From assembly GCA_021432655.1 (NCBI GenBank), contig MU271517.1, positions 3,887-51,040 on the forward strand: 47,154 nucleotides of DNA. The letters run 5' to 3'. This DNA comes from Atractiella rhizophila (lineage: Eukaryota). Every line of letters starts with the position of its first letter. Within the stretch, counting starts at the first letter, position 1. The translations under genes and the position numbers were made by a program. The notes beneath the pieces are model-generated. The model was not told where the DNA came from. It did no database searches and was given only the letters and a program-made list of their open reading frames with translations. Shown one piece after another: positions 4,431 through 44,541 of this stretch.

Positions 4431-5510
4431 GTTTCCCAACCACAGCTTACGCGCTCTCAATCGAACCCGTCGCACCTATTTCAACGGACCGTCCAGCCGC
4501 GGCACCGCTAATGCGTCGTTTGTCGCTTGTCTCAGCCCTGCGTCCCTCCTAACGTCTCTTCTGCAGCGGACCCATCCACATCGATGCCATTTCCCACTTA
4601 CCTTTCAACAGCCTCGTCGCCTACAATTCGGTGCGACCTGATAGGACTTGGAGTGAGGACGGTTTCCTTCCTCGGCATACAAGTTTACGGTATGTCCGTT
4701 GCTTTTCATTGTCTGTCCTCTATTTTGATGACCTTTATTTCGCAGTTGCCGGTTTTTATGTCGATCAAGACGCCCTCGCCTGTCTCCAATACATGCCCGA
4801 ATGGGTGTCCTTTAAAGCGGACAAGCTACTCTCTGCATCTGTACCTTACCACCAGCAAATCACGGAGAATCTAGATTACGAAGGTTTACGGGGTCGGAAA
4901 GGGGAGACGCAGGGAGAGACTCGTGGCGAAGAACTTATACGCCGTCTTGTGGCACTGCCGGGTGAGTTCGTGGTGAGGATTGTCCCGACTAGAGGGACAG
5001 ATTTTGGACACCTTAGAGATGGGTTCACAAAGGCATTGATGGGAAGGATGAAAGTGGCAGAGAAGAAGGGGGAAATTGATCCGTCGTTAGGAGAGGTGCG
5101 TTCAATACCGCTACCAGGAGATTGGGAGACTGATGTTGGCACGTAGAGACTGGCAAATTCTTTGGTCGAGTTCAAAAACCTTTTCCCGCAAGCGAGGAAA
5201 CTGGGGAAAGGCAAAGAGATGCTGTTGATCAAGGATCGAGATGGAAATCTCAAAGTCGAGTGTGAAGGAGAACTCATCGGAATCTTGAAAGATGAGTGGA
5301 TTGCGAGGGAGATGATCGTTGCATATTTCGCTGATCAAAACGTTATCTCGCAAAAAGTACGCTGACACTCCCTCCATTCACGCCGATCTCTTTACTGACG
5401 TTGGATTGATCGGGAAGATGAAAGACTCTGTGGCTGCTGGCTTCGAATCCCTGATGCGCAACCCTCCGAAGCGACATATTCCGAAACAAGGATTCTTTGG
5501 CGCTAGTTAA
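4431..5510 (+). CDS. Chalcone-isomerase-fold mitochondrial protein (Aim18/Aim46-like); N-terminal exons unresolved
   Basis: Motifs LIGLGVRTVSFLGIQVY, VRIVPTRGTDFGHLRDGF and YFADQNVISQK across 4-5 exons with GT-AG introns; stop at 5508-5510. Confidence 0.8.
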
Positions 5511-6101
5511 ATTCCGTTGCCGCAGCTTTCTCTGTGAGAAGTAAGGCCCACAGTTGCCTATGGATTGTACATTTGTACGGAACATCGCATTTAATCTGCA
5601 GTTTACCATAATCAAGTTTTACCGCCTGCATTTTTTACCTCAGTTTTTGCGCTCCTACCTGATCTCGGTAATGGCAGCTGTTCTTATATTGAATAACAGT
5701 ACTGTCTTGAGTAAATCGCTCAAGCTTCAGCGTCGAGTCGCGCATCCGCGTCCTGCCGTGAACGATGGCAAGGGTTGCAATAACGAGAATGAAAAGGATA
5801 TTTTGGAGCCGCATATGCTGCTTTCGTTCGCCATGAGCTAATCAAGCTCACAATCATACAATGCACATCATCATACTTGGCGCCTTTGTTTGCTCTGAAT
5901 ATTCGACTACTAGTTCAATTGAGCGCAACCAACGCTGTTTGAGTGACTGCTTGAGAGAGGACTGTCATTTATCATACAAACAGCTGTAACAGCAACCGGC
6001 AATGGAGGTGCTCTTGCAAAGCAAGCATTATGTATTGATGGTAAGACATTGAACGTAAGTACTGGAATCAACCCCCAAAAATAAATTGCAGCTTGTCCCA
6101 T

Positions 6102-6770
6102 TTAAAATAGGCGGCGGATGTATTTAAGAGGTCCAGTACCAATCCTCGCTTCCCTCTCAGCAGCGAGCTGTTCAGCAGAGTCCCAACTATTGGTCCCGTT
6201 AGCTTGACCAGTTAAATCACAGGTAGATGCCAGACATACCATTTCCTTCCAGTGTCAAGATCAATCTCTGATGCTTTCCTGAACCCATCACGCTTGAAGA
6301 AGAATGCGATGGCCCAGAATGCAAGAACGATGGGGAAGGCAAGATCTAGAAAAACAAGGATCAGTGGGATACAACAGTCCTAGAAGATTAGACGGACAGC
6401 TCAAAAAGAATCCTTCAGCAGTGGGAGCGCTGCCATCGATGGGATCGACGGCGACGTAGAGTTGCAAGATAAGCACGAGGACGACGAGGAACAGTCCAAG
6501 GTAAGATCCGGGAACGCCAAAGGCAGCCTTGAAGGGGATCTCTCCAAGGTCCTTCCCTTGAGCCTTCCACGCAGCGCGGAACCTAATGTGAGCAACCTAC
6601 AATCACTGTCAGTCATCGATAATGTAGGTGGGACGACTACATACACAGATAGATCCCCAAGTGAAGAGAGTGGAAAGACCCGAAAGTGCTAGAAGCCAAT
6701 CGAAAGCAGTGAGACCTTTCTTTGCCAGGGAAACATAGGCGAGGGGTCCAAAGACAATGATCGTAGTGAC
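6102..6770 (-). CDS. Amino-acid permease (YAT/Gap1 family), C-terminal exons
   Basis: FGPLAYV...AFDWLLALSGLSTLFTWGSI, then DLDTGRK...SAEQLAAEREARIGTGPLKYIRRLF*. The reading frame runs into the N gap. Confidence 0.9.
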
Positions 6771-6795
6771 NNNNNNNNNNNNNNNNNNNNNNNNN
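6771..6795. other. Assembly gap (25 N)
   Basis: Run of N. Roughly 100 permease codons, between SAI and VTTIIVF, appear to be missing here. Confidence 0.99.
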
Positions 6796-9700
6796 GAAGA
6801 GTTACCATTTACAGTGCTAGAACATAGAGAGAAGAGAACAAGACCCAAAACAGCCAAATTTCGTCGAAAGACAGTAAGTAGGGAGAAGCAAGACTAACGT
6901 ATTATCTTCAGGCCAAGGTGGGAGAAGATAGCTAAGAAAGGAAACCAAGCGTTCCTCAACTAAGCGGCGAACATGACAAATGAGGTATTTATTACAAAAC
7001 AGAACACGATGACAAACTGAACAAAGCCATGATGCTACAAATTCGATGGGAGAAAGAGATGCATAAAAGACAGGATGAGCAAGGAAGGAGGAAGTTTGCC
7101 AGATAGAACGAGAACAAAACCAACCGCAGGAGCTAGGAAATACTTTTATTTAAGACACGTTTGCCAAAGTCTTAAAGTGGAGAGCGAATAGAAATACTAC
7201 ACAACAGGTATGGGGTAAGAAGTACTGAAGCCAGTACTGAAAGGACGAGTAACAGCAAGGATATGTGAAGGGAGTTCAATCCCTGCTGAAAGTTCTATAA
7301 CGAGACATTAAGAAATATTGACTTCGAAGAGAACATAAAATATTTAGATCCAACGTTAGGTACGGAACAGCGGAGATAACAACGACGAAGTTAAAGTCAA
7401 GCTCAAAGCTCAGACTTATAATGGTTTTTTTGTGGTTAAGAAACTTGACAGGTGGAAGCTTAGAACGAGATTCTAAAAGGCACGGTGGTACCGGTTTGTT
7501 ACTTTGCTTAGAGTTGCAGTGTAACGACCGCTTCCTTCTGACCAACGACCAATTGGTTGACTACCTATTAGCTCTCGATCCTACTGCCAATGATTTAGCA
7601 ACGTAGGTGCGTCTAACGTAGTTTGAGTTATGACGTCACATAGAGTCGATTTACTTTAAACGACCCTTGTACAACAAGCTATAGAATTCCACGCAAAAAC
7701 GGGTGACGTATCATCTCGGCTTGGGTGCTCGCAGGCTGGGCCGTTCGCTCGAGCACGAGGGAGTGAATGAGATAAAAACCTTGTGGAGCAACTAAATTTC
7801 GCCAGCTGGAAAGAAAGAACAAAGGACCAAACACCAAACACACTATTAACCACCTATTTACGTCCTCCTACCTTACCTTTACGACCTAGAAGTAACAACG
7901 ACTATAACTTAACACAAATCCCTTCTCCACATTTCCTTGCCATGCGTTTAGAGGAAACGGTCCAAAGTGTCTAACGGAACGTTAGCCCGAAAAGTCAGAT
8001 AGCAATTTCCTTTAAGCGTTATTTTAATGTCATTTGTAATTCCTCAACGGCTTTGATAATGCAGAGGAAGCTGGGCAAGCAACCTACACTGAAAACCTAA
8101 CCCTTTCATGTGTACAGGACCTACATCGACAAGTCCACTACGTCCGTCCTACCTCTGACCGTTTAGATCGGTGTAGGAAGCCCAACGGTAACAGTAGCAG
8201 CTCGAGACTGCCGTAAGGTAGCAATGGAAAACGAGGTAAACGATTTATTATTCCAGTTACCTTTCACCCTGAGAAGAGGAGTGCCAACTTTGCAGCTACT
8301 GGTCTCAGGCCGAAGCCGAAATGTGTAAGGTAACTCACCACGGAACGAGGACTGTAGCGGCAAGTTCAGCCAAGGACGATTTCCTGTTCATTTGGGACGT
8401 GTAAAACACACGATGCCCCTTGGCGGTCTCCCACACTTTTTTACGTCCCAACATCGAACCGCGTGTGCATAGGTCAAGTTATAGCTCAGCGGTTCTACAG
8501 TACACGTTAGAGGGAGGAACTCTAGAGTTTTGGAGTCGCGGGAGTCGAAGGAGAAGCGCAACGATAGAAACAAATGACCCGAGACTCTTAGAAGTCTGTC
8601 TACTACAACGGTTCAACGGAGCGCCAGTACGACTATGCATCTTGCGACAAAGGAGGAAGAGAGGTAAACGCCACTATGGTTCCGTAAGCCTAGAACCGTC
8701 ATGGCAACCGTTATTACTACGGCTTAAAGCCTTCGTCTAACAACTTTACAACCCCTTTCCTTGTTCCAGCACACGTTGACGAATGAGAGCGACAGAACTT
8801 TTGCTTGACAGAAGTAAGCTCACATGCTCGCTCCTCTCTCGTGCGAATACAGGACCACAGCAGGTGTCTGTACGTTACCGGTAGCCTCTTCCGGAGCCAT
8901 CATTAGACAACAGCAGAATAGTTCTCTATCTTGTCGTTACTTACTCGGTTCTGGGTTAGCGCACTATTGAGACAGTGACAGAACAGCGTGCGTCTAGTCC
9001 TGCAAGTCGAGACGAATTTTCCGAGCGGGGCGGGGACATTCCTAAAAATGGGAGTAGCTCTTGGTGAGGAAGGGAGGAAGAGCGAAGGGCGGTGAAGAGG
9101 AAGAAAGGGCTGTCGAAACAATCAAAGTCGGTGTTACAGCCTACTTTTCCGCATAAGGGGGGAGATTCCTCCTAGTGTGCCAGCAATGCTGGTTTCGACG
9201 AAGGATGCTACCTAACACCCTAGGGAGTGTACTCAGGTTCATTCGAAACAAGATGTGGGTGGGTTAGAACTCCGAATGTCTTGCACCACTTCTACCTGAG
9301 CGAACCCTAACTGGCACCTTAGGAAGTTCTCCCGAGGGTTACGTCAGTAGGTGTTTTAACTGCAGCTTCGACGACTCCGCTCGCCTTTCGGACAGCTGGT
9401 TTACCGACGTTTCCTCCCAAGACGTTACGTCGTAGTCAAGTTTTTGGCTGTAGAGGTCTACAACCGACAGCGACCAAGGTAACCTTGGCCAAGCAAAACA
9501 AGGGATGATCTGCGCCTGTTCGAACTATACTTGAGACGTCCAGAGAAATAACCATCACCTCCACGAGAGTGAGCGCCTCCTGGGCGACCACAGGAGTAAC
9601 GTACCGAGTAGTACCCATAGTACAACGAATACCAGTACGTTCGACGGCCTCCAATCAGAGAGGGGGGTCGTACCTTTGAAACAGTTACTAAACCTACGTC

Positions 9701-10375
9701 TTGACCGATAGTACATGGGACAGTGGCCACCTAAGATATGGAACAGGCTAGCGAAGTAAGTCGGCAGAACCCGTTACCGGTACCCTACCATTCAAAGCCG
9801 CAAGACGCAGTGCACTAGGAGTGGTTCACCCCTGTGTCCTTGATGCAGAACGTTACCCGACAGCACGAAGGAGAGCTTAACTAACGACGACGGCAATGGC
9901 ACAGCAAGACCTCCCTGCTATAGAGAGTTCGACAGACCTAATGGCACAAAAAGTAATGACAGTAGTAACAGTTGTATAAAGGCTAACCGAAGCGGCTTCT
10001 CCTTAAGACCTGGTCAACCTAGTTTGAGAACATTCAGACCGTGAGAAAGATAAAGAGAACGTACTGGAACTCTGGTCCTGACAATAACCTAAGGAGTAGA
10101 AGCGGGAGTAGTACCAAGAACCACCACCTTTTAGACCCAGGCTGATGCTAAGTATGCACCCTCCTTTCCATAACCTTGTCGGGACCGCGAAAGCGGTTGC
10201 CAAAGGGGCCACAAACGAGGCATAAGCAGTGGCCGTCGAAAGAGAAAGCGACCATGACTCCAAACAGATAAAGGTTAGGTACTTAGGTACTCGGGTGATT
10301 GGGTCTTTGTTTCTAGTAGCGCGAACGACGGAGCCTTTGTCGCGTTGGCTTCTTCGTATACGGAAGTCGCTATTT
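6796..10375. other. Reversed-but-not-complemented (mirror) sequence block
   Basis: Neither normal strand is interpretable. The complement read left to right gives permease exons with GT-AG introns and a T-rich UTR-like stretch. Right boundary is approximate (10375-10397). Confidence 0.95.
9135..10375. CDS. Amino-acid permease (YAT/Gap1 family), N-terminal exons, readable only as the complement left to right (minus strand once the block is reversed)
   Basis: Complement translation: MSDEKAYSP..., WTRLGLTVESFKRAP, KNRHLQMLAVAGSIGT|GLFIGSGGALTRGGPAGVLIAWLIMG, ELAIMYPVTGGFY, GVCSVFVT..FSFAGTE, LAASETAQPKKHMPSAI. Confidence 0.93.
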
Positions 10376-10397
10376 AAACTTTACTAACGAGGTTAGG

Positions 10398-12070
10398 TTA
10401 CAAGACCCTTGGATCAATCGTCGTTCCCCTTCCGTGGACGGGAACCGAGTCTTGTTCGGTTGGTGTAGCTTCGGCAGGAATAGCTGCTGTTGTAACAGGA
10501 ATATCGCCCCAATATGGTTGAGGTGGGACGTAGGAAGGGTATACGTTGGAACGAACTGGTTGAGGGGAGGCATCGTAAACTGGGGCAGAGGCAGAAGCGA
10601 GCGCATAAAGTTGGACTGGTTGATGCACTGGATATGAAGGATACAGGAGAGGTTGATGGTGAGAAGTGCCGACGTTCATGTAAAGAGCATTAACGCTGTC
10701 ATCAAACGTGTGGATAGCAGGATTTTGTGCAATGAAGTTGGAAGAAATCGGTCCTGGCGCATACTCGTATTGTTGAGTTGGAGGCGGAGCAGGGAATTGA
10801 TAATCGGCCATTGAGATTGAACCAGGGGTAGGTTGAGGAGGTTGTCCAGTTGAAAAGACATTCTGAATGTATCCCTCTTGATGCCTTTCGTCCGGAGTGA
10901 TGACTGGTGTAAGCGACATATCGGAAGGCGTAAAAGTCCCGTTGATGGAAGCAGTCGGCGGACAGACATAAATGTCAGGCGTTGGAGCGACGCTAGTCTG
11001 CTGATCCTGTCGGCTTCGCATTCGTTGGGCGCGGGTAATACGAGGGGCTGACTGAATGACTTCGACCAGCGAATTTCTGCGTGAGGTAGAGATATAGTCT
11101 TCGATGGAACGAGATTTCTTGAGTTTCGAGGCAGCAGCTCTCTTCTTGCGGCTTGTCGTTATTGAATGGTCTCCCGACTTTCCGCGTCGATGAGGAACGT
11201 AGACATACCCTTTAAGAAAATGTATTCATCAATCCCTCATGCATTCATCGAGAAAGGAAGAACGAACCGGGATGCTTCTCCTGGTGCAACTGTTTGATTG
11301 TTTCTTGGAGAGCCTCAAAAACCCTTCTTCCCTCAATATCCATCGACTTCCACTTCTGACCCAAGGTCTTGCTCCTATCTTTCTCTCTCCCTTCTGCCAT
11401 CAAGCCATGATGCCATTCCGCGGCTTGCTCCAGCAACAGTCCGACCCGACTACCTTTCGGAATGACTCCACCTTCGAAATACGGTTCAAATTCCTGTCGT
11501 CGACCTTCCACCGTCTTCCTATACAACATAAACTGATTCGGAGGCCGCTTTATCGTCCGTCTGCCTGGCAAAGAGCGAGCGGTAGGAATACGAGGAGAAT
11601 CTTCACCCTCCTCCTCGCCGGATCCGGAACCATCCATGTCAGCTCCCAAACAAGGGCTGGAAGATCTCCAGGATCCATTCCCTTGCACTTGGAGGTCTTG
11701 TGGTGATAGCGAACGGGCATCTCGAGCGATCGGAGGAATGGGGAAACCGTCGAGAGAGAGGTAAACGGGTTGAAAATGTGGATTTGACGCGAACTGTTTG
11801 TCATCCGTGTCAGACAGGATAAAACGTGTTCCAAATTCGCTATTTCATCAAACAACAAACAGCAATCCCCCCATCCACAGGAAAGAGAGAAAAAACAGCT
11901 CACTTTGTGTATATTTGAGATCCGGACACAGGTGAGTGTTTGCGCGAGCGAATTGGGGAAGGAGATCGTGAGATGGCGAGAGATTGAAGTGGTGTATGTT
12001 CGCGAGCGAACGTGGACGCAGGTGGCGGAGGATCGAAAAGAAGCGGTGACGGTGATCCAGAGGCGGTCAT
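10398..12070 (-). CDS. HMG-box transcription factor (sequence-specific MATA_HMG/SOX-like class)
   Basis: IKRPPNQFMLYRK...SKTLGQKWKSM...HQEKHP|GYVYVP followed by a basic tail and a P/Q/Y-rich C-terminus. Exons at about 12070-11904, 11791-11269 and 11210-10398 splice in frame. Confidence 0.88.
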
Positions 12071-14035
12071 ATTATAATAACGAGGTCTGATTAGCAAATT
12101 GTTCCTCGAATAAACTGTGTAATGATCAAATGATAAAGCGCGATGAATGGTGGTTCTGAAAGTCACGCTTGGACGTTTAAGTACAATGCAGATTCCGGAA
12201 AGGGAAGAGACGCGCTTCCACATTGTGTCGCAGATTTGAGCAAAACCCGTCCTTGTTGTCAAATCCGGACAAGTTGGACGCACTTCCATTGTTAATATTC
12301 ATTGTTGGATTTAGAAAGTCGAATTGAAGCACTGACTGCACTGATATCGGAGGGAAAAACATACCCCTTCCTGGTTGAACATTCTTTGCACTGCAGCGTG
12401 CGAAATGCTGATTAGAAGCAAAGTAAATTTGAAAAGTAGGCAAATAATATTAGGGAAAGACGAAGCCAAAGTGATCGCAGGGTTGAAAGGGAAAGAGAGA
12501 AGAAAAGGACCTGCCGCCTCTTTTCAAGAGTGGAGAGAACATGAAACTCGTAGTTTAAGGTTTGTGAAAAGTCAGATTTGTGCAGTTGAACAAAGAGAAG
12601 GTTCGGAGATTAAACATGAATCCACTCTGGTGGGCTTCCGTTGCACAAAGGGAAAGAAACAACCCTTTCAACCATTTTGAACATGTCATTCATGTCATTC
12701 AAATCTTTGAATTCATGCTGATTCGAATCCAAACAGTCCGTGCCATGCACCTTCTACGTTGAGGGACTCGAGCTCGTGCATCAGCCAAACTCTGAAAATC
12801 CCAAATGACAGGAGATGTCTTCAGCACATTAGCATTGGTGGACATCCCAACGGGCACGCATGGACCGGAAACCGACACCTCGAAGAGTAAGGAAGAATAG
12901 TCTGGTGTTGTTGGCAAGCCCCAAACTCAAGAATCTCAATGGGAAACATTTCCTGCAGAAAATCAACTTGCGAAAAAAAACCAGAATCGAGGACACAGCT
13001 CGAATTTTCGCCTCACTTGAGCAGGAAACGCGGGGTGAAGCACTTCTGTTCTCTTCCGTGTGGTCGCATGAATGTCAAGGTCTTTCAAGATAGACGGAGG
13101 CAGTCATCTCGGGCGAGTTGGTGAAGAGCTGTGGGATCGGGAACAATGGCATACGCACGGGCAAGAACACGGGGTGAGAGTAAACCGAGGGATCGCTCGA
13201 AAGAGCCAGTTGGATATTTGGATATGGTGCGTCTGCTGGATACCCATCAAGTCGTCCCCCACTGGAGTTTTGCCTATCGTAGAACCCAGTACTGTTCGTT
13301 AGCCAACTTTCAGGGGAAGCTTGCAAAGTGAGAGGTTGCGGACCGTCTGAACATCAAGATCGAATCATTCGTTGTCCTTGCTAGATCGACCAACTGCTAG
13401 CGTGAGCGGGACAAGTCAGACTCGATGACAGATGACACGGCCGACCATCCCCGCCGCTTCCTCACGACTCGGAGAGCAATGGGTCCCATGAAGAGACCAT
13501 CTCGTCTTCTCGTTATGAAAGCAGCGAAATTTAAGTTAGCAAAACGGGAAGATAAGCGAAAACGGTATGAAGATGACCAGACAGTGATGCTGAACAGAAT
13601 CTGAGCTTCGAGGGGAATAGCTTCGTTCGTTGTGAGGATGAATGGGACGCGTGCTCTATGAAACTTTCCCTCAGCTCAAGTTCTCAGCGCCATGCATACG
13701 AATTTGAGGGAAGGATCTTTGGAGTCGTTACGCTCGCTTAATCTAGCCCGACACAAAGGGGTCAGCAAACACGATCTTGGGGAAACGGTCGTTCCACACA
13801 CGGAAATCTCATCACATTCTGTCACCTAAGTCTTACTACACCATTCGCTTCTTAAGCTGAGTATCTGTTGCAGCTCACAGGAACAGAGGCACGGAGGGGA
13901 TCATCATGAACTGTATCGACCATTGATTGCACTTGCCCAACCAAATCAAGAATCAATCATTTTCCACGAATCTAAAAGCCGAAAGGCACGAGACAGAGGG
14001 AGTGGCGGCTCACAAATTACAATCTCCCAATTTCT

Positions 14036-22065: not shown

Positions 22066-25000
22066 CTAAATCGCATTCTCCAACACCAATCGCGGAGCAA
22101 TGTTCATCGCCATTAGCTCCTGGAAGAGTAGTTTCGCAGCATAGGGCATCTTGATCTGCGTCACCTTCTTCCCGCTCTTGCAACGGACACACCATCCGTT
22201 GTATCCCATGAACCCGCACTCTTGACACACATCGACCTCAAAGGCGTCGCTGGAGATCATCAGTCGTTCAAGGAGGAGCTGAGAAGCGCCATGGGCGATG
22301 AGACAGTCGCGCTCCATCTCTCCCAGCCGTAGACCACCATCGCGGGATCGTCCTTCGGTTGGTTGACGAGTCAAAGTTGCTCGTGGACCTCTGCAAGATG
22401 ATTAGTAGAGGCATATGGGGTGGGGGAGATGAACGCTTACCGTGCTCGCGCATGCATTTTATCCAATACCATGTGTTCTACCAATCAGACCCGTCAGCCG
22501 CGACATTCAAATTGGAACGAAGAAGAGAGACGCACTGAGCTTCTGGTAGAAAATGGGACCGAAGAAAATGTATGCTTCCAACGGTAACCCTGTTATGCCG
22601 GAGTGAAGCATTTCTTTTGCGTGGTACGAATACCCAGCGTCAATCAGCACCTTACTCATATCCTCCAACTTGCTCCCTCCAAAAGCCGTTCCATATTCCA
22701 ACGTTCCCCTCACAACTCCCGCCTTTCCGCTAACAAGCTCAAGCATCTTCCCTACCGTCATTCGCGAAGGGAAACCGTGGGGGTTCATGATGATATCTGG
22801 ACACGTTCCCTGGTCATTAAACGGCATGTCTTCCTGGGGAACGATCAGTCCACAAACTCCCTTCTGCCCATGCCTCGACGAGAACTTGTCTCCAAGCTCC
22901 GGCCTCCTCGTCTGCCTCATGAGGACCTTCAACACCGTCACACCCTCGTTCTCCCCCTGCGAAATCATGACCTTGTCGACGTAACCGGGGATAGCTCCTC
23001 GGTAGCTCATGGTCGCATTCTTCCAGGTCGTGGAGGCGAGATCGGTGATGGCTTCGGTGGAGTTGGCATTGGAGGGTGTTTGCTTGTTGATGTAAGCTTG
23101 ACCTGGAAGGATTCTGGCACCGACGTGAGCGAGTCCATCACCTTCGATGGAGGTCCACTTTTCGAGATTCTTTCCATTTTCGTCCTTTGGGGGATCTGCA
23201 AGGCGATCGTGTCTACATTGTCCAAGTTATCAGCGTTGTTCCATTCAGAATGAAACTGAGAGAGAAGAGATGGCTGATGATAAGTGAGAAACGTACGTTC
23301 CATTGGGATACCTCTTCAGGATCGTACCATGCTTCCTGAACACTTGACACCTACCATACCCCCGATCCAAACTACTCTTGTTCAAAATGAGCGCATCCTC
23401 GATATCGTAACCCGAATAGCTCATGACGGCAACGATCGCATTCTGTCCTCCCGGCAATTTATCAAATCCAACCATCTCGATAGTCCGCGTCTTCACCATA
23501 GGTTGCTGAGGATAAACCATGAGGTACATCAGCGTATCGATCCTATTGAGCTGGTTGTATCCGATGCTCCCCATCGCCTGTTTGCCCATGGCGCATTGAT
23601 ATGTGTTTCGAGGAGACTGGTTGTGGTGTGGATAGGGGATCAAGCCGGCGACGGCGCCGAGGAGGGTGAAAGGCTCGATCTCGAGGTGGGTCGTGTGCAT
23701 GGTCAGCTCGTCCTCTCGGAGGGCGATGAATGAATCGTTTTCTTCGTTCACGTCCAGGTACTCGATGAGTCCGAGACGGAGGAAGTCGTCGAACACCAGC
23801 TTCTTCTCCTTCAACATCTGTTCCAGGTGAACAAGTCACTCCTCAGCTCCGTACAAGTCGAAATAGCAAAGGACGAACCATGATGTGCTCATCCGTAACT
23901 CTAGGCACGCCTGCTTCGACGATAATGAGCGGCCTACAGATCCTCCCTCCATCAGCGGAGACAAAGATGGAACGCTGGTGTTCGTTGACGTAGATGTTGA
24001 CGAATCCCTCGATCTTGCCAGCCCTTCTCAGCCGCCTAAACTCTCGCACAAACCTCTTCGGTAGACGGGTCAAGCCGAGAGCAGAACCGTTCAGGAAGAC
24101 AAGGTAGTTGCCCTCTGCGTAGATTTCCGTCCCGGTCAGCGTTTCGAGATCTGCCATAGGGATGAGCCATGTTTATTGTAGGCAGATAGAATGAAATGGA
24201 TCGGAATTGGCAAGTAGAAAACGTACCCTCTACCCCAATAACGGCCAACCAACGCGCGATAGGTTCTTCTTCGACATCTGTCGTGATGTGCGTCATGAGC
24301 GCTAAATTCTTTACGAGTCCACAAGCCTCTCCTTCCGGGGTATCAGACGGACAGAGCATTCCCCACTGGGACGGCTGGAGGGCTCTCGGGCCAGATACCT
24401 TTCTAGTCTTCTCGAATTGGGACGTGATACGGGTCATCATTCCCAACGCGGAGATGAACGATAGACGAGAAAGGACGTGGGTTATCCCCGCACGCTCCAT
24501 CTTGAAACGCTTGAGGCTCCAGTTGCCTGTTGAGATGGCGCGGACGAAGCCGGAGGTGATGGAGTCGGTGTGGAGGGAGAAGGTGGCCATGGCGTCGTAC
24601 GCTGAGGAGCGATTGGACTTTTTGAGGACCTTGTCGATGTTGGTTTTGAGGTCGTGATTGAATTTTTTGAAGAGATCCTCGAATAACAAACTCATCAATT
24701 GTCCCGCCAACTCGAGCCGCTTGTTCCCTACATAGTCCCTGTCGTCCGTCTCTCCTCCCTCCAAACATTCGAGGACGCGTCGAGCCATGATCCCGATCGC
24801 CAGTGCCTTCTTCCTCAGACCTAATCCTGGCCCTTCCACTTTGACGTGCGCCAATACCACGGACGCTAAGACCTCCAAGCCTTCTTCCACTTTATCCCTC
24901 CTCCCACTTCCCGCACCTCCCAACCTCCGCTTTATGCGAGATCCAATCCACTCCAAACAGCCTTTCCGCGTCTTGCAACCTTCCCAGCCCAGACACGCCA

Positions 25001-25820
25001 AATTGGGTTCAAACGCTCGCCTCAGGTTGTCGTTCGGTCCGCAGACGATGGAGACGATCTCGAAGGCGGAGGTCGCTCCGAGCGCGCGCAGGAGGAGAGG
25101 GATGGGCACGTCGTCTCCTATGCTGTTGTGTCGGAGATATAAGAGCGGAGGACTGCCAGCCTTGGAGGCGCTGACGACGTAAGTCTTGCTCTTCCTCTCG
25201 AGAGAAGAGCTGGTCACGCTCGCCAACACCGCACCCTTCTTCGCATCGTGCTCGACGATGATCCTGTTCTTGGACAGCTGCTCCTGCACGAGGATGACCT
25301 TTTCGGTGCCCTTGACGATAAAGTATCCGCCGGGGTCGAGGGGGCACTCTGTCATCCTTGCGAGTTCGGATTCGCTCTTTCCGTTGAGGATGCAATGCGA
25401 CGACTTGAGCATGATCGGTATCTTCCCAATCTTGACCCCGCGCATGATCACGTTCTTCCCGCCCCTAGTGTAGCGCACAGAGACGTATATGGGAGCCGCA
25501 TAGGTGATGTCCCGCAGACGACACTCGTGCGGCGTGATGCTCCGGTCCACGCTCTCGACGTCGGGGCGCTCGGGCTGGCCGACGGAGATGTCGAGGTACT
25601 GGAAGAGGAAGGAGGGGTCGACGTCGGAGGTGATGGTGGAGTTCGCGCGGAGGATGAGGGGCAGCTCGGTGTCGAGGAGGTAGTTGAACGAGTCGAGATG
25701 CTGCTTGACGAGTCCCTTGGTTGAGAGGAAGGAGGGCAGCAGCGTCCATTTGTCTGCCACTTCCTTCACTGGCGCATGCAGAGGAGGCAGCTTCGACGTC
25801 GACGGGACAGGGAGCGACAT
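22066..25820 (-). CDS. RPC2: DNA-directed RNA polymerase III second-largest subunit
   Basis: [87 protein letters not shown] and [12 protein letters not shown]. Confidence 0.97.
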
Positions 25821-36034: not shown

Positions 36035-37471
36035 CCCTGTTCCTCTTCAACGTCTTAAAAGGCCACCTCCAAGAAGAAGGCAGAGTTGCTGAAGAGCTGA
36101 AACAATACCCTACTTAACAGGATCTGAGGGAAAGGCAGTCAACCTACAGACTACCGCTCTGACCAACAGTGTTGGCAACTCCAGCTATCTTCTAACGAGA
36201 GGCAAGATGGGCTGGGCTTAGAACCACAGAACTTCCAGCTTATCTACTCCTCAGACAACCTCACCAAATGCACCACGGGGTCAGATGGAGAACAAAGGGG
36301 TGGAATTAGTGAGAAGAGGCTGGGTAACGGCATAAATCAAGTGCCAGTTTGCCATTCATCTCATCCACTTCAAGGCGAGCTTCCCGTGCGCATGAAACAA
36401 AACAAAGTGAAGCTCGTTCTCGTAGTTCCGCGAAGTCCTAGCGCGCATGCGTTCTCTCTGACTTTCATCTTCCACACGTCAGAATATAACAATCACTTCC
36501 CGCTCATGTGATTATCACAGAACTGCAGGGGAAATGCCGAGTATGAGTACGGTGTGACCGTGCTGGACAATGAGGCCTCCTGCAATGGGATGCTGCTGAA
36601 TTGTACCCAATCTTGTTGCAAGCTCTACGACTACTGAGCCGTGAGCGCATGAGCACCGACTGATCCCTTTCATCCTCTAGCTTAATTCAGATTGAACACA
36701 CCTTCCTTGCAAACCTTTCCCCGCCTGATTTGTAGCCACCAAGGCGTGATACACTAGCTCCACCACAGCTGTCCAACCTTGACGCCTCCCCTTTCATCTG
36801 TCACTTGTGCCTTCGTGGCTACAATGCATGATCGATATGATCGTAGACACAATCCAATCTGGAGGACGTCGCCGATCGAGACCTTCCCAACAGACTTGCA
36901 CGTGCTTTTCAGAATCCGATAGTAGATACCTGGAAGCCGTACAGAGTGAGGGAAGTTACTGTGACGAATTTGGGGTGCGTCGAGGTGCGTCAAGGTCAGA
37001 TTGCTCTCCGTCTCTTACTTTGTGCCTTTCTTGCCACGAGCGCCTGAAGTGAAGTGGTATAGGAAAGTCTGGAAAGCCATGCAACATTGCAATAAAGGAG
37101 TGCTATCAAAGAAATGTTGATTGTGCAGATTGCCTTTGGGGCTGAGTCTGTCACTCACTTCCTTGCTTTCTGACAGCAAAAGACTGCCGGCGATATCTTT
37201 TCATTCTGAGATCTGTCGAGTTGCATCGTTTTAACCACGGACGGCCATGGTGTAGGTCGATTGCGTGGACGTGAGCGCCTTGTGCGATTTCGAGCTACTG
37301 GCGAGATACTAGTGCGCAATAAACATTGGCTTTAACCGCTCTTGGATTCGCTTGCCTTTGCTCATTTACTCTTCCTTTACAGCAGGATCCAGACTTGCAT
37401 TCACTTCTTAAGTGGTTATAGAACCCTCCTTTCTCTGCCCGAGTAGGCTGCAAGTCCATAATCTCAACACA

Positions 37472-40190
37472 ATGTCAACCCTTCTCTCCCTCCTTCTGAT
37501 CACCAAGTCGTCCGGTCATGCCACCCTGCTCCTCGCTGTGCCGGAACACCCAGCACCTATCCCTCGAACGACGCGTCCGATCTACTCCAAGCCGGTGTTG
37601 AAGAAAACAGGGGGAGGATCCAAAAGGACAACCAATCATTATAGCGATTCGGACGAGCCAGATTCGGAAGACGATAAGTTCTACAGACCTGTCCAGAAGG
37701 AGGGACAGTACCTCAATCTCCCAAGGAAGGTGTTAGCCGATGCGTGTGCGCCGGAGAGCGAGATGTGCGACAAGAAGTTTGAAATGGTCATTAATCATTT
37801 GGCGTTCATTGGGCACCCGGTAACCTTGAAGAAGAAGCGAGAGGCGAAGAGTAAGAGCAGAGAAGATGGAAGGCAGAAGGGTGCGAGTGTGAGGCGGGTG
37901 GCTGATTCGTTGGAGCGTAGGGGGAGGACGAGAACGAGCACGAGATTGATGGAAGCCTCGAGTAGCTCGAGTCCGGAGGATCAGCGCTTTCCTCGTTCTG
38001 GAGTGAGTGCAGCTGGGCCGTCTACCTTCGCCAAGACAACGGGACTTGGTGGCGTGTTGTCCTCTTCCCCAACGCATAGCGACATACCGCGAATAGCTAC
38101 GATGGAGAGCCTTCCGGACTATAGAGGACCTTCTCCTCCTCCTCCCATGTCTCCCCGACATGAGGAGCAGACTCTTCCGGAAGAAGGACAGAAGGCAGAG
38201 AGGAAGAATTCGACGACGACGACTTCCTTTGAAGGGACAGAAGAAGACGACGAGCAGGAGATGGGCTCGGCAAAGCTCACCATGTTCAATCTCGTCCTTG
38301 TCATCGATACCCCACCTGATTCAGATTTGAGCGAACATCTGGATGCTTACTACAGGTACAGCCTTCTTTAGGCTGACTGTCTGTTGTGATTGTGAGACTT
38401 CGGCGGCTAGGGACATAATACTTCCTGTAACAGCGGCGCTGAAGCAAGAAGAGAAGGCGTCGAGTTGGTTGACTGAGGAAAAGGTAGCGATAGTACGGCA
38501 GAGGGAAGAACTGGCTGAAAAAGGCAATCTGTTCCCCTTTCCACATATGTGCGATAAGCTCATAGAAGAACAGGCAAACCATACAGCTTTTCTATGGCCC
38601 ATAGCACATCTCCTCTGGTCAGAGCGCTAACGGATGTGTATATCGGTATATTGCTCTTCTGCCGTCGTCTTTGTAATTACTCACGAATAGGTGGTGGAAG
38701 GTCTCAAGAATGCAACAACCCCGATGATATCTTTAAGACATCGCGATCTTTCTGTCGTCCTTCACGAGGTCTCAACATCCACTAATCCGATGGGCGGGGC
38801 AAGTGCGAACGAGAATGCCATCACAGAATGGGGACGACATTCATTTTGGGGAGTTCAAGGCTTACCCGCCGTTGAGGGCGAGGAAGAAAGGTTGTCATCT
38901 TTTCCAGTCATGAAACAAGACACTGATTTGGTGAGAATGCAATAGGAGCAGGAGTGTCGATATTGCGATGGCGTATGACCGTGTAAAGGACGAGGCGGAG
39001 GAATGGGCAAACTTCAGACCTTGGAATAGGTGGCAGACCCTCCTCCCCATCGTGGAGGCCGATAAGTTATCCAACTTGACGAGTGATGAGACTCTCAAGG
39101 CATTTTTGGACTATTTGAGCCCAGTTATCAAGTTCGTGCCCGTGCTCCTTTACACTCGAACAGGGAGGGAGTTGACTGAGAGAATAGCTTCGTTTCATAT
39201 GCCACGCTCCTCAATATCTCACCCGAGAGCATGAAGAAGATTGTAGAGCATATGATTAAATGGAAGAAGGGGAGAGTGATCGAAGTGATCAGCTTCAAGA
39301 ACACGTATTTGGTGTCGCCAAAAATTGACATGCGCACGTAAGTTGATCCAATCTGGTTACCTGTCCAAGTATGCTGAAACCAAAAAAGGCTGGCGGCCTT
39401 GACCAAACTCTTTGCTGAAAACAAAGGGTTTTCAAAGGTTCCCCCTCTTCCTGCCATCCTTTCCTCTCTCTCTCCAGCCCGTCCATTCTCCACAATCATA
39501 CCGAGAGTGCCCCCACTCGGAGTTGCACTCAACGAGCACAAATCCACCTATCTAGACGTCTTGACGTGGCTTCTTCAGAAAGAGTTGGTCGTCCAGGCTC
39601 ACTTCTACATCCGCTTGGTGGCACGTCCTGAAATCAAGAGAAGAGCCAGAGACAATCATTTCAGGTTGAAGAGAGAGAGGCGGAAGGCACGCGCAGAAGA
39701 CGGGGGAAGTGCAAGTGGAGAAGTGTCTCCGAATTATCTCACTCGTACGACGTCGAGCTCGTCCATTTCCTCCTCACTCTCCATCCACGGCCCTCAACCT
39801 CCTATCTCTCCATCTCATTTTCCCTCCTCACCTGCTTCCATCCTCGCTCGCTCCGCTGGCAACCTCACCCGCTCCGGCAATGACGGCGGTTCCAACGCAT
39901 CTGAAAGCGATTGGGAAGAAGACATGTTGAAGCTTTCGGAAGATGTGGACACCCCTTCGATTATTGTGGAGCCGGCGCGCTTGACAAGGGTCGAAAGAAA
40001 GTGGTTGGAGGAGATATACGCAGAAAAGACGGAGGAGCTTGCAGGAGTTTTGAAGAGTATTGTCCATTTGTGTAATGGGAAACATGGGGACTATGAGATA
40101 ATGCAGAGGACTGGCGTGACAAGGAGAGGGATGAGAGCTATAAGGAGGGAGTTCGAGGAAGATTTAATTGTCACTTTACATGTACCGTAG
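37472..40190 (+). CDS. NPR3: Nitrogen permease regulator 3 (SEACIT/GATOR1 subunit)
   Basis: N-terminal longin-like LLLITKSSGHA, MCDKKFEMVINHLAFIGHPV, MFNLVLVID, TAALKQEE and WQTLLP, then a C-terminal YLDVLTWLLQKELVVQ...CNGKH region. Confidence 0.88.
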
Positions 40191-42051: not shown

Positions 42052-42956
42052 CTACGAAATAGGGACTTCTGGAACGTTAAAGTCCCTCAGGCGGTTGAAA
42101 AACAGGCGTTCCCTCTGAAACCTGCCCTGCCAGAGCATCTCGACCCATCGATCACACCCTCGTGGGACGACATAAAGCATCTTTGTAAACTAGAAAGCAC
42201 ATAAGCGTCCGGATTAAGATATGCCGGAACGCTCACCTCCCAGAACTCGGGCAAAAAAGCTGCACATTCCCAGTCCACAACGGCGGTCACATTCCCAGTC
42301 CGACTATCAGCTAGAATGTTTTCAAAGCTGAGATCGTTGTGCGTAAGCACCGTATTGCGCTCCCCATAATTATCGCAGAACCGCTGCAACTCCAAATCTT
42401 CCCTGCTCGTGTATTTGAGGTTGTATTTATAAAGCTTCGAGAGGAATTGTCCAGCGGTGTCACAAGGAGGCTGGACATCGAAATTATTGAGTCTGTAATC
42501 CATGAAAGGTTTTCCGCCGACTGAACAAACCGCGTAGGGATGTATATTGTGAATGTTTCGGATTGCCTGAACGAAACTACGAAAACTCTGCACAAAATTC
42601 GCGCGTTGTACTTGGTCAAACGAACCAAGTAACTTCATGGAAAGTTGCTCTCCGGGAATGAAAGTCGTGACCATCCAGAAAGTTGTATCCTCTCTGGCAA
42701 CAACATCGAGACAACGTGGAACCGACGTAATGCTTTGCATTTCGAGAAATCTGAGTGTGTTCGCTTCAACGTCGTTACCGCACAATTTTATGCAAATTCC
42801 AAGAGAAGGTAACAAAGTCACCGATTTTACACAGTAGTTTGGCCCTAGTTTGTGTTCTCGTAACACTAAATAATGATAGAGCTTGATCCTCAGGCACCGC
42901 GGAAGTCGAGAGATGCATGAAAACAGAACTCGGACGAGGAAGCCGAACCAATGCAT
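42052..42956 (-). CDS. Aminoglycoside-phosphotransferase/choline-kinase-like (APH) protein
   Basis: EANTLRFL...VPRCLD and LTHNDLSFENIL...VVDWECAAFLPEFWE. A 47-nt intron at 42190-42236 gives WE|FTKML...VPIS*. Confidence 0.88.
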
Positions 42957-43830
42957 GTCGTCAGCCTCATGCAGACGTATCACACCCTAGGCGCACAATT
43001 CGCCGGACTTTGGTAGTGAGTCGAACTTCAGGACAGGAATTGAAAGCGTTTCAGAATGAGGACATCAACCTAACAGGTCAAGATAGCGGGCAAAACGTTC
43101 TACGGTCAGGTCTTCGCAGAATCTCCTTTGAACACCCGAGGTCTATAAAGTCTTGCTGAGACAACAAAAGGATGAACCCAGTGATGAAATGTCGCAATGC
43201 TTTGTCACGAGAATCGCTTGCGGCCGCAAAGGGATGTCCAAGCAGATCGCGGCCAAGGTTAGGAAAGGACGCCACAAAAATGTCAAAGAGGCTGAACACT
43301 GAGATATGTGAGATGGCCGAGAGATTGTGAAAGCCAAGTTACATGTCACGTGCAACGTTTTCTTTGTTTTCTTTCTCGTCCTCCCGGAGACACAGATACA
43401 ATAATCCCGACGGTAACCACTTATTGTAACCACTGGCAGCCCATGGATGCAGATGATCATCAGCTCAGATTGATAGCTCATGGTGCTCAGGAGACATCAA
43501 GTTTCAAGATAATAAGGCCATGAGCTTGGTGTGTACTTCAGTGCATTTTACCATTTTCTTTATTGAGTGGTTGACTTGCGAGTAATAACGAGGGCAATGC
43601 ACTGAGGAATGATATTCGCGACCCTTTCAAATCTAAAGACCAGTTTCGCCCCTTGTCATCGCGTGCTCCGCCAGATAACGCTGACAAACCGGTCTGTGCT
43701 TTCTTAGTGTCCTTGTTTGCGTTTGAATGTCAAGACCTTGTGCCCTTCAAAGAATCTCTAGGTCCTGGTTTACCCCATAAAAGGCTTCGTAGTTGCCGTC
43801 TCATCCCACAACGCGAAGGACATCCAAAGT

Positions 43831-44541
43831 ATGAACAACCAGAATTCAGAAGAGTGGAACTTTCGATTAGATGATCCAGCTTACTACACTCAGATGGATC
43901 TCTGGCCGACAACATCTGGAGGAGCTGGCGCTGCTCCTACCACTGGCCATTCTTCTCAAGCGGAACAAAATGTCCTCCCTGCTAAGCGGTTTCTCGAACT
44001 TAAAACTCTCTATCTCATGCTATTTGGGCTGGATCAGCATAATGCTAGCAATGGCCTGTTTCATTGGGGCCTTTTGGCCACTTCATTGCCTTTTAACGGT
44101 GTCCTGTTCCATGCCGTCGACTCTCTGGACGACGCGACGAACCCTTGGGCTGTTCAGATCCGGGAGGCGTATGACATTACAAACTCCAACAGCGTTGTCC
44201 TAGTGTTGAAGATCGGCCGCATGTCGCCCGTACAATTGCTGGATCAGTTGAAAACCATGGGCTTACAGAGTAAAGATGGAAAATATCATATCGATTTTGC
44301 GACACTTGTCAAAAGATTCTCTCACCACATCCAGCCCAAGGACAAGCGACTTACCTGCAGGGTATTCACGCTAATGGTCGTTTCCTACCTTTGTTCTGAA
44401 AAATTACTTCCTGCCTACAACATGGACGAGCTTGAAAAAGAAGCAATCAGCCTAGCAAAAAGGAATGTGGATTTCATTAATAGAGGCAACAAGGATTTCG
44501 AGCTCCGTCTAGCAGAGTCTCAATTTTTGCGTGGCTACTAG
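43831..44541 (+). CDS. Hypothetical 236-aa protein, intronless, with His...His...Cys motifs
   Basis: Clean ATG-to-stop ORF with globular composition; motifs FHWGLL, LFHAVD and LTCRVF. Confidence 0.7.
   Translation: MNNQNSEEWNFRLDDPAYYTQMDLWPTTSGGAGAAPTTGHSSQAEQNVLPAKRFLELKTLYLMLFGLDQHNASNGLFHWGLLATSLPFNGVLFHAVDSLDDATNPWAVQIREAYDITNSNSVVLVLKIGRMSPVQLLDQLKTMGLQSKDGKYHIDFATLVKRFSHHIQPKDKRLTCRVFTLMVVSYLCSEKLLPAYNMDELEKEAISLAKRNVDFINRGNKDFELRLAESQFLRGY

Follow-up and report, generated by a model that had tools for sequence, protein, structure and literature searches.

INTRODUCTION

Mis-oriented contigs are common beside gaps in draft scaffolds. A block of this kind, like a true chromosomal inversion, is the reverse complement of the real order and can be read by a six-frame search. 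Gaps may also be altered by tools that extend sequence into them. Passages of PMC3504050 describe PBJelly as treating 25 or more N as a gap, extending flanks into gaps and leaving N where a gap was only reduced, and passages of PMC12923307 state that other fungal genomes, assembled with AllPathsLG at a sequencing centre, were patched with PBJelly. A further system comes from titles and abstract openings in the regulatory and synthetic genomics literature, in which DNA that is reversed but not complemented serves as a designed control, purposeful and labelled, with base composition kept and function destroyed.

Here, we describe a block of DNA from Atractiella rhizophila that adjoins an assembly gap and in which the 5' half of an ordinary gene for an amino-acid permease lies hidden. 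We refer to the whole stretch of DNA that we analyzed, 47,154 bases in length, as the window. The letter order of the block is reversed without complementing, which is equivalent to saying that the opposite strand has been complemented but not reversed. Like a mis-oriented contig or an inversion, the block lies next to a gap, breaks a gene and ends in a sharp junction; unlike them, it becomes readable only after complementing without reversing. Its likeness to a PBJelly flank extension, judged from the described behavior of the tool, is that it is contiguous with one flank and that the residual N run equals the tool's minimum of 25. However, a correct gap-filler patch is written in the strand of the scaffold, whereas the strand flip of this block is only half done. 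The string operation is the same as that of the designed controls, although the block sits unlabelled at a gap edge in a genome contig and appears to carry an error profile of its own. The hidden gene is an ordinary member of the fungal PF00324 permeases and has nothing unusual in itself, but the copy on this contig differs from them in being without residues 314-417 and in having three extra bases.

RESULTS

Half of a permease gene is readable only in the complement

We complemented the whole window without reversing it and ran tblastn against this complement-only copy and against the window as written, on both strands. The protein query, P0001, was a 588-aa Atractiella rhizophila permease (NCBI KAH8919227.1, named "amino-acid permease inda1"). 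Residues 1-313 of P0001 matched the complement-only window at 9135-10379 (375 bits, E 2e-117), in keeping with the original prediction that the complemented string would align to a permease, whereas both strands of the unaltered window lacked any match to them and gave a hit to residues 418-588 only (6770-6105, 243 bits). Exact mapping of these residues to the minus strand agrees with the earlier placement of the C-terminal half, in normal orientation, at 6102-6770. The features of the block and its surroundings are as follows.

Permease 3' half: 6102..6770, minus strand, four exons (6770-6642, 6593-6399, 6343-6242 and 6185-6105, by exact mapping of P0001) encoding residues 418-588 of P0001 and followed by the stop codon (6102-6104)
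N run: 6771..6795, no strand, 25 N, the sole N run in the 47,154-base window
Mirror block: 6796..10380, no strand, 3585 bases, letter order reversed without complementing
Mirrored non-coding part: 6796..9134, no strand, in true order the HMG-box 3' UTR and downstream region, the spacer and the permease upstream region
Permease 5' half: 9135..10380, read only as the complement of the plus strand from left to right, encoding residues 1-313 and including one base of codon 314, its first
Single extra bases: 9162, 10166 and 10233, complement-only reading, breaking the frame relative to P0001
HMG-box gene in the right flank: 10381..12071, minus strand, stop codon of the last exon at 10398-10400, with 10381-10397 the first part of the 3' UTR

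Exact mapping recovered 313 of the 313 N-terminal residues of P0001 in the complement-only reading, in ten segments. The nine breaks between these segments correspond to six introns and three single extra bases. The 5' half therefore comprises seven exons, and its introns, of 53, 51, 49, 50, 47 and 53 nt, each run from GT to AG in the mirrored reading, as had been proposed from the letters of the sequence. The limits of the block are exact: base 6796 belongs next to 10381, codon 314 opens with base 10380, and from 10381 onward the mirrored reading breaks down. Thus, the original prediction of a mirrored block at 6796..10375 was right about the mirroring and short by five bases at its right end. 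The point at which it had the coding sequence stop was also mistaken, as coding continues through N-L plus one base.

Permeases of other fungi behaved in the same way as P0001. For all 11 of the 11 proteins used, the N-terminal half matched the mirrored window only (tblastn, E 1e-17 to 1e-43), and the C-terminal half matched the window as written only. An unrelated control protein, P0019, found nothing in the mirrored window (tblastn, best E 0.92). We conclude that the mirror claim is correct, far beyond chance.

P0001 itself matched the AA_permease profile PF00324 at 460.9 bits, over profile positions 1-467 of 470 (cut-off 24.6), and its relatives in other fungi are 550-615 aa long. On the minus strand of the window as written, the exon at 6399-6593 scored 37.2 bits on PF00324, above the 24.6 cut-off, and the exon at 6642-6770 scored 23.9 bits, slightly below it. 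The N-terminal half of the family was present in the complement-only reading alone.

A possible indel-type error profile in the block

The three extra bases all fall in homopolymer contexts, which in the complement-only reading, with the extra base in brackets, are attccccc[C]tct, ggagga[A]agg and tcacc[G]gca. Compared with P0001, the 939 coding bases of the block show no residue change and three +1 bases, and such indel-type differences in homopolymers may be a point of likeness to long-read gap filling. The right flank, compared over 1280 bases with a contig from one of the public sequencing runs described below (X1), has 7 substitutions but no indel. The indel-type profile of the block, against the substitution-only profile of the flank, would suit a long-read patch. 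The extra bases would then be errors of the long reads; the alternative is that they are real frameshifts of the window allele.

The mirrored signal covers the non-coding part and is confined to the block

Protein matches bear on the coding part of the block, and we also scored the window as a whole. A fourth-order strand-symmetric Markov model was trained on the rest of the window, and the score as written minus the score letter-reversed was taken in nats per 500 nt. Inside the block the mean was -12.5 (sd 4.2), and the mirrored reading was preferred in 6/6 of the bins that lie wholly inside it; the bins of 7001-9000, which lie in the non-coding part, were negative. Outside the block the mean was +14.2 (sd 6.5, 86 bins). 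For each 500 nt, the ratio sets the block apart by some 4 standard deviations.

We found no other mirrored stretch in the window by this measure. Only the bin 4501-5000 was marginally negative (-1.5), and it contains a normally read Chalcone_2 ORF. Weak flags by ORF length at 13001, 16001 and 43001, considered as candidate mirrored stretches, were not borne out by the Markov test. Within the mirrored stretch 6796-9134, a search for a further gene gave longest open frames of 162 and 121 aa, none of them recognizable by eye, and inspection by eye likewise found no conspicuous long exon on either mirrored strand. Several genes elsewhere in the window read normally.

Chalcone-isomerase-like protein: 4553-5143, plus strand
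RNA polymerase III second-largest subunit (P0019): 22069-25820, minus strand, six exons mapped
NPR3/NPRL3-type GATOR1 subunit: 37412-40187, plus strand
APH/choline-kinase-like protein: 42090-42986, minus strand

The gene that borders the block on the right matched the PF00505 HMG_box profile at 33.4 bits (cut-off 25.4), and the left end of the block as written is really part of its 3' UTR. A search with its last exon (10401-11000, minus strand) against proteins of 351-2000 aa gave no hit, which would mean that the gene model falls below this size range or that the low-complexity tail is lineage-specific.

Independent contigs leave the window at both junctions

We aligned contigs from four public sequencing runs to the window at 5300-11900. 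Two of the runs (X1 and X2) are from one sample and the other two (X3 and X4) are from others. The best run reached a word share of 0.49, a value consistent with the flanks only (6001/9611 bases), and we did not count it as evidence. None of the four runs covers 6847-10161; this coverage hole proves nothing, and our argument rests instead on the loose contig ends.

At the right junction, the match between the window and contigs of X1, X2 and X3 starts at exactly 10381 and extends rightward, and the further 509, 509 and 82 letters, respectively, that these contigs carry on the left do not fit the window. The first 30 of these leftward letters before 10381 are identical in the three runs, which represent two samples, and they equal the reverse of 6796-6825 at 30/30 positions. 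The artefact explanation in the original prediction had been staked on there being no reads that fit the block as written and span its right junction; what we saw was the opposite of such a fit, in that the contigs of X1-X3 leave the window at 10381. In X1 this position is crossed by one contig with a depth of 204, and other single-contig stretches of the flanks have depths mostly of 175-240, with one of 97. No second form at 10381 is evident from the X1 depth.

At the left junction, contigs of 4/4 runs fit to exactly 6770 and then continue into coding DNA that is absent from the window. The 30-letter consensus past 6770, reverse-complemented and translated, reads VDKAGRPLVA, which is P0001 residues 408-417 and directly precedes V418, encoded at 6770-6768. 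Residues 314-417 of P0001 (104 residues) map nowhere in the window by exact mapping, and the N run stands in for at least 311 real bases that encode them. The mirror block begins at the first base after this run, the only one in the window, a position that is expected for a gap-reducing patch and very unlikely for a randomly placed change.

Because the contigs continue past both 10381 and 6770 with true sequence, the true order is the left flank, at least 311 bases, the block reversed, and then 10381 onward. Reversing the block restores a colinear minus-strand locus, as had been proposed: the HMG-box stop at 10398-10400, the 3' UTR, the spacer, the permease 5' half, the missing piece and the 3' half. 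Independent data therefore contradict the written order at the junctions of a block that adjoins a scaffold gap.

The same contigs allowed some observations on the flanking genes. Contigs of X3 and X4, for which the kind of run is not on record, skip 6186-6240, 6345-6398 and 6594-6643. These stretches are the introns of the permease 3' half as derived from P0001, and they are bounded by CT..AC, corresponding to GT..AG on the minus strand. In the HMG-box gene, an intron at 11209-11266 with ends of this kind is skipped by an X3 contig, and an X4 contig skips a GT..AG stretch on the plus strand at 5357-5417. No RNA run was among the public runs listed as matching. Just downstream of the permease stop codon, the contigs of X1, X2 and X3 all lack one base at 6077, and at 6084 they have T for A; these differences reflect either allelic variation or an error in the window.

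Allelic twin contigs and annotation

P0001 is encoded on a separate twin contig of 59,228 bases and not on the 51,040-base contig of the window. The protein of 43831-44538 (plus strand) is present in NCBI on the 51,040-base contig, and P0019, encoded on a contig of this length, maps to the window with 1140/1141 residues. On this evidence, the flanks of the block are genuine public sequence. The window gene at 43695-44538 has a twin, about 98 % alike, in a partial protein of 283 aa encoded on a third contig (105,987 bases). At 6321-6492, X1 and X2 each yield two contigs, representing alleles at a depth ratio of about 2:1, which differ from the window at 8 and 4 places; given that both differ from it, the window is a mosaic of both alleles there. 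As both X1 alleles depart from the window at this place, the runs may come from samples other than the one assembled into it. Taken together, the location of P0001 on another contig, the 98 % twin and the two alleles indicate that the source assembly seems to contain allelic twin contigs. The permease is annotated on the twin, and the copy on the window contig is broken by the gap and the mirror.

We also looked up predicted proteins in the NCBI protein collection by exact match. Nine of the 10 ATG-to-stop ORFs of the window were absent, as expected for spliced genes. The argument that an intact P0001 in NCBI proves the window to have been altered was considered and rejected, as P0001 lies on a different contig.

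DISCUSSION

Given that the contigs of independent runs contradict the written order, we consider the block to be a sequence-handling artefact from the building of the scaffold or the record, with a probability of about 0.85, and the real minus-strand order to be the HMG-box gene, the spacer and an intact permease gene. The original prediction had named a gap-filling error, a file-processing error or a deliberate manipulation. Its view of the block as an artefact holds, and the choice among these three options is only partly settled by our results.

We propose that a hole of roughly 4 kb probably lay between 6770 and 10381, and that it would have been partly filled by a 3585-base piece extending the right flank leftward. 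Such a piece would have been built on the opposite strand and then, on reinsertion, complemented but not reversed, amounting to a half-done strand flip. The base belonging beside 10381 would thereby have come to lie beside the residual 25-N gap. The block is the un-reversed complement of the minus strand read away from 10381, and this is what a half-done flip of an opposite-strand piece would yield. We infer that error-prone long reads supplied the piece as an extension of the gap flank, and that the public record itself contains the error, as opposed to a later addition. The involvement of PBJelly would fit this picture, and we regard it as a lead only. We found no assembly description for the Atractiella rhizophila genome in the literature, including the species passages of PMC13347111, and the titles and abstract openings that we consulted contained no report of a released gap filler with such a bug, nor of non-complemented reversals as assembly errors.

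It is also conceivable, although unlikely, that the block was reversed after deposit, while the window was being prepared, through a slip or as a deliberate control or spike-in, and that the record itself is correct or merely gapped. The existence of designed controls made by this very operation lends the idea some plausibility. In addition, a gap-truncated permease model (residues 418-588) on the window contig has no exact match in the protein collection, and the annotation shows no sign of a broken record. However, the odds that a blind manipulation would start exactly where the only N run of the 47-kb window ends are about 1 in 10^4, and a later reversal would have to accommodate a block that seems to carry its own indel-type error profile, next to an N run that replaces at least 311 real bases rather than masking an equal number. 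The intact P0001, which might have argued for a later alteration, ceased to do so when it was placed on another contig.

The other two explanations take the block to be real DNA or an ordinary error of orientation, and both are extremely improbable. One haplotype of the sequenced isolate could physically contain the mirrored block, the normal allele being that of the twin contig and of the public runs. Chemically, DNA with a reversed string of letters is ordinary, and the runs X1-X4 may not include the source sample of the window, but nothing we found gives this idea positive support, and we know of no polymerase or recombinase that makes a non-complemented reversal. If it were true, a physically mirrored haplotype would mean that cells can write DNA backwards by some mechanism not yet described. 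The normal order was seen at 10381 in three runs from two samples, with normal coding DNA behind 6770 in four runs and no second form evident at 10381 from the X1 depth. Moreover, mirroring would destroy introns, codons and promoter order, and yet the 313/313 intact residues show no decay. Physically mirrored DNA is refuted for X1-X3. A true chromosomal inversion or a mis-oriented contig is marginally less probable still. The frequency of such contigs beside gaps speaks for it, but a reverse complement would have matched the N-terminal halves of P0001 or of the 11 other permeases on one strand or the other of the window as written, and neither strand did; given that tblastn reads both strands, an ordinary inversion is excluded.

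The artefact that we favor is of a kind that can escape notice. Neither six-frame searches nor checks of composition reveal a half-done strand flip, and it drops a gene from the annotation; a block flipped in this way could pass for orphan or novel DNA. Detection is cheap, by tblastn on complement-only sequence and by the Markov ratio of the sequence as written versus letter-reversed. For the biology of Atractiella rhizophila, the block is not a real genomic feature: the gene is ordinary, the real locus is colinear, and the block is biologically unimportant. If the cause is a pipeline fault and not a single slip, however, genes may be similarly hidden in other gap-adjacent patches, both of the same assembly and of its sister assemblies.
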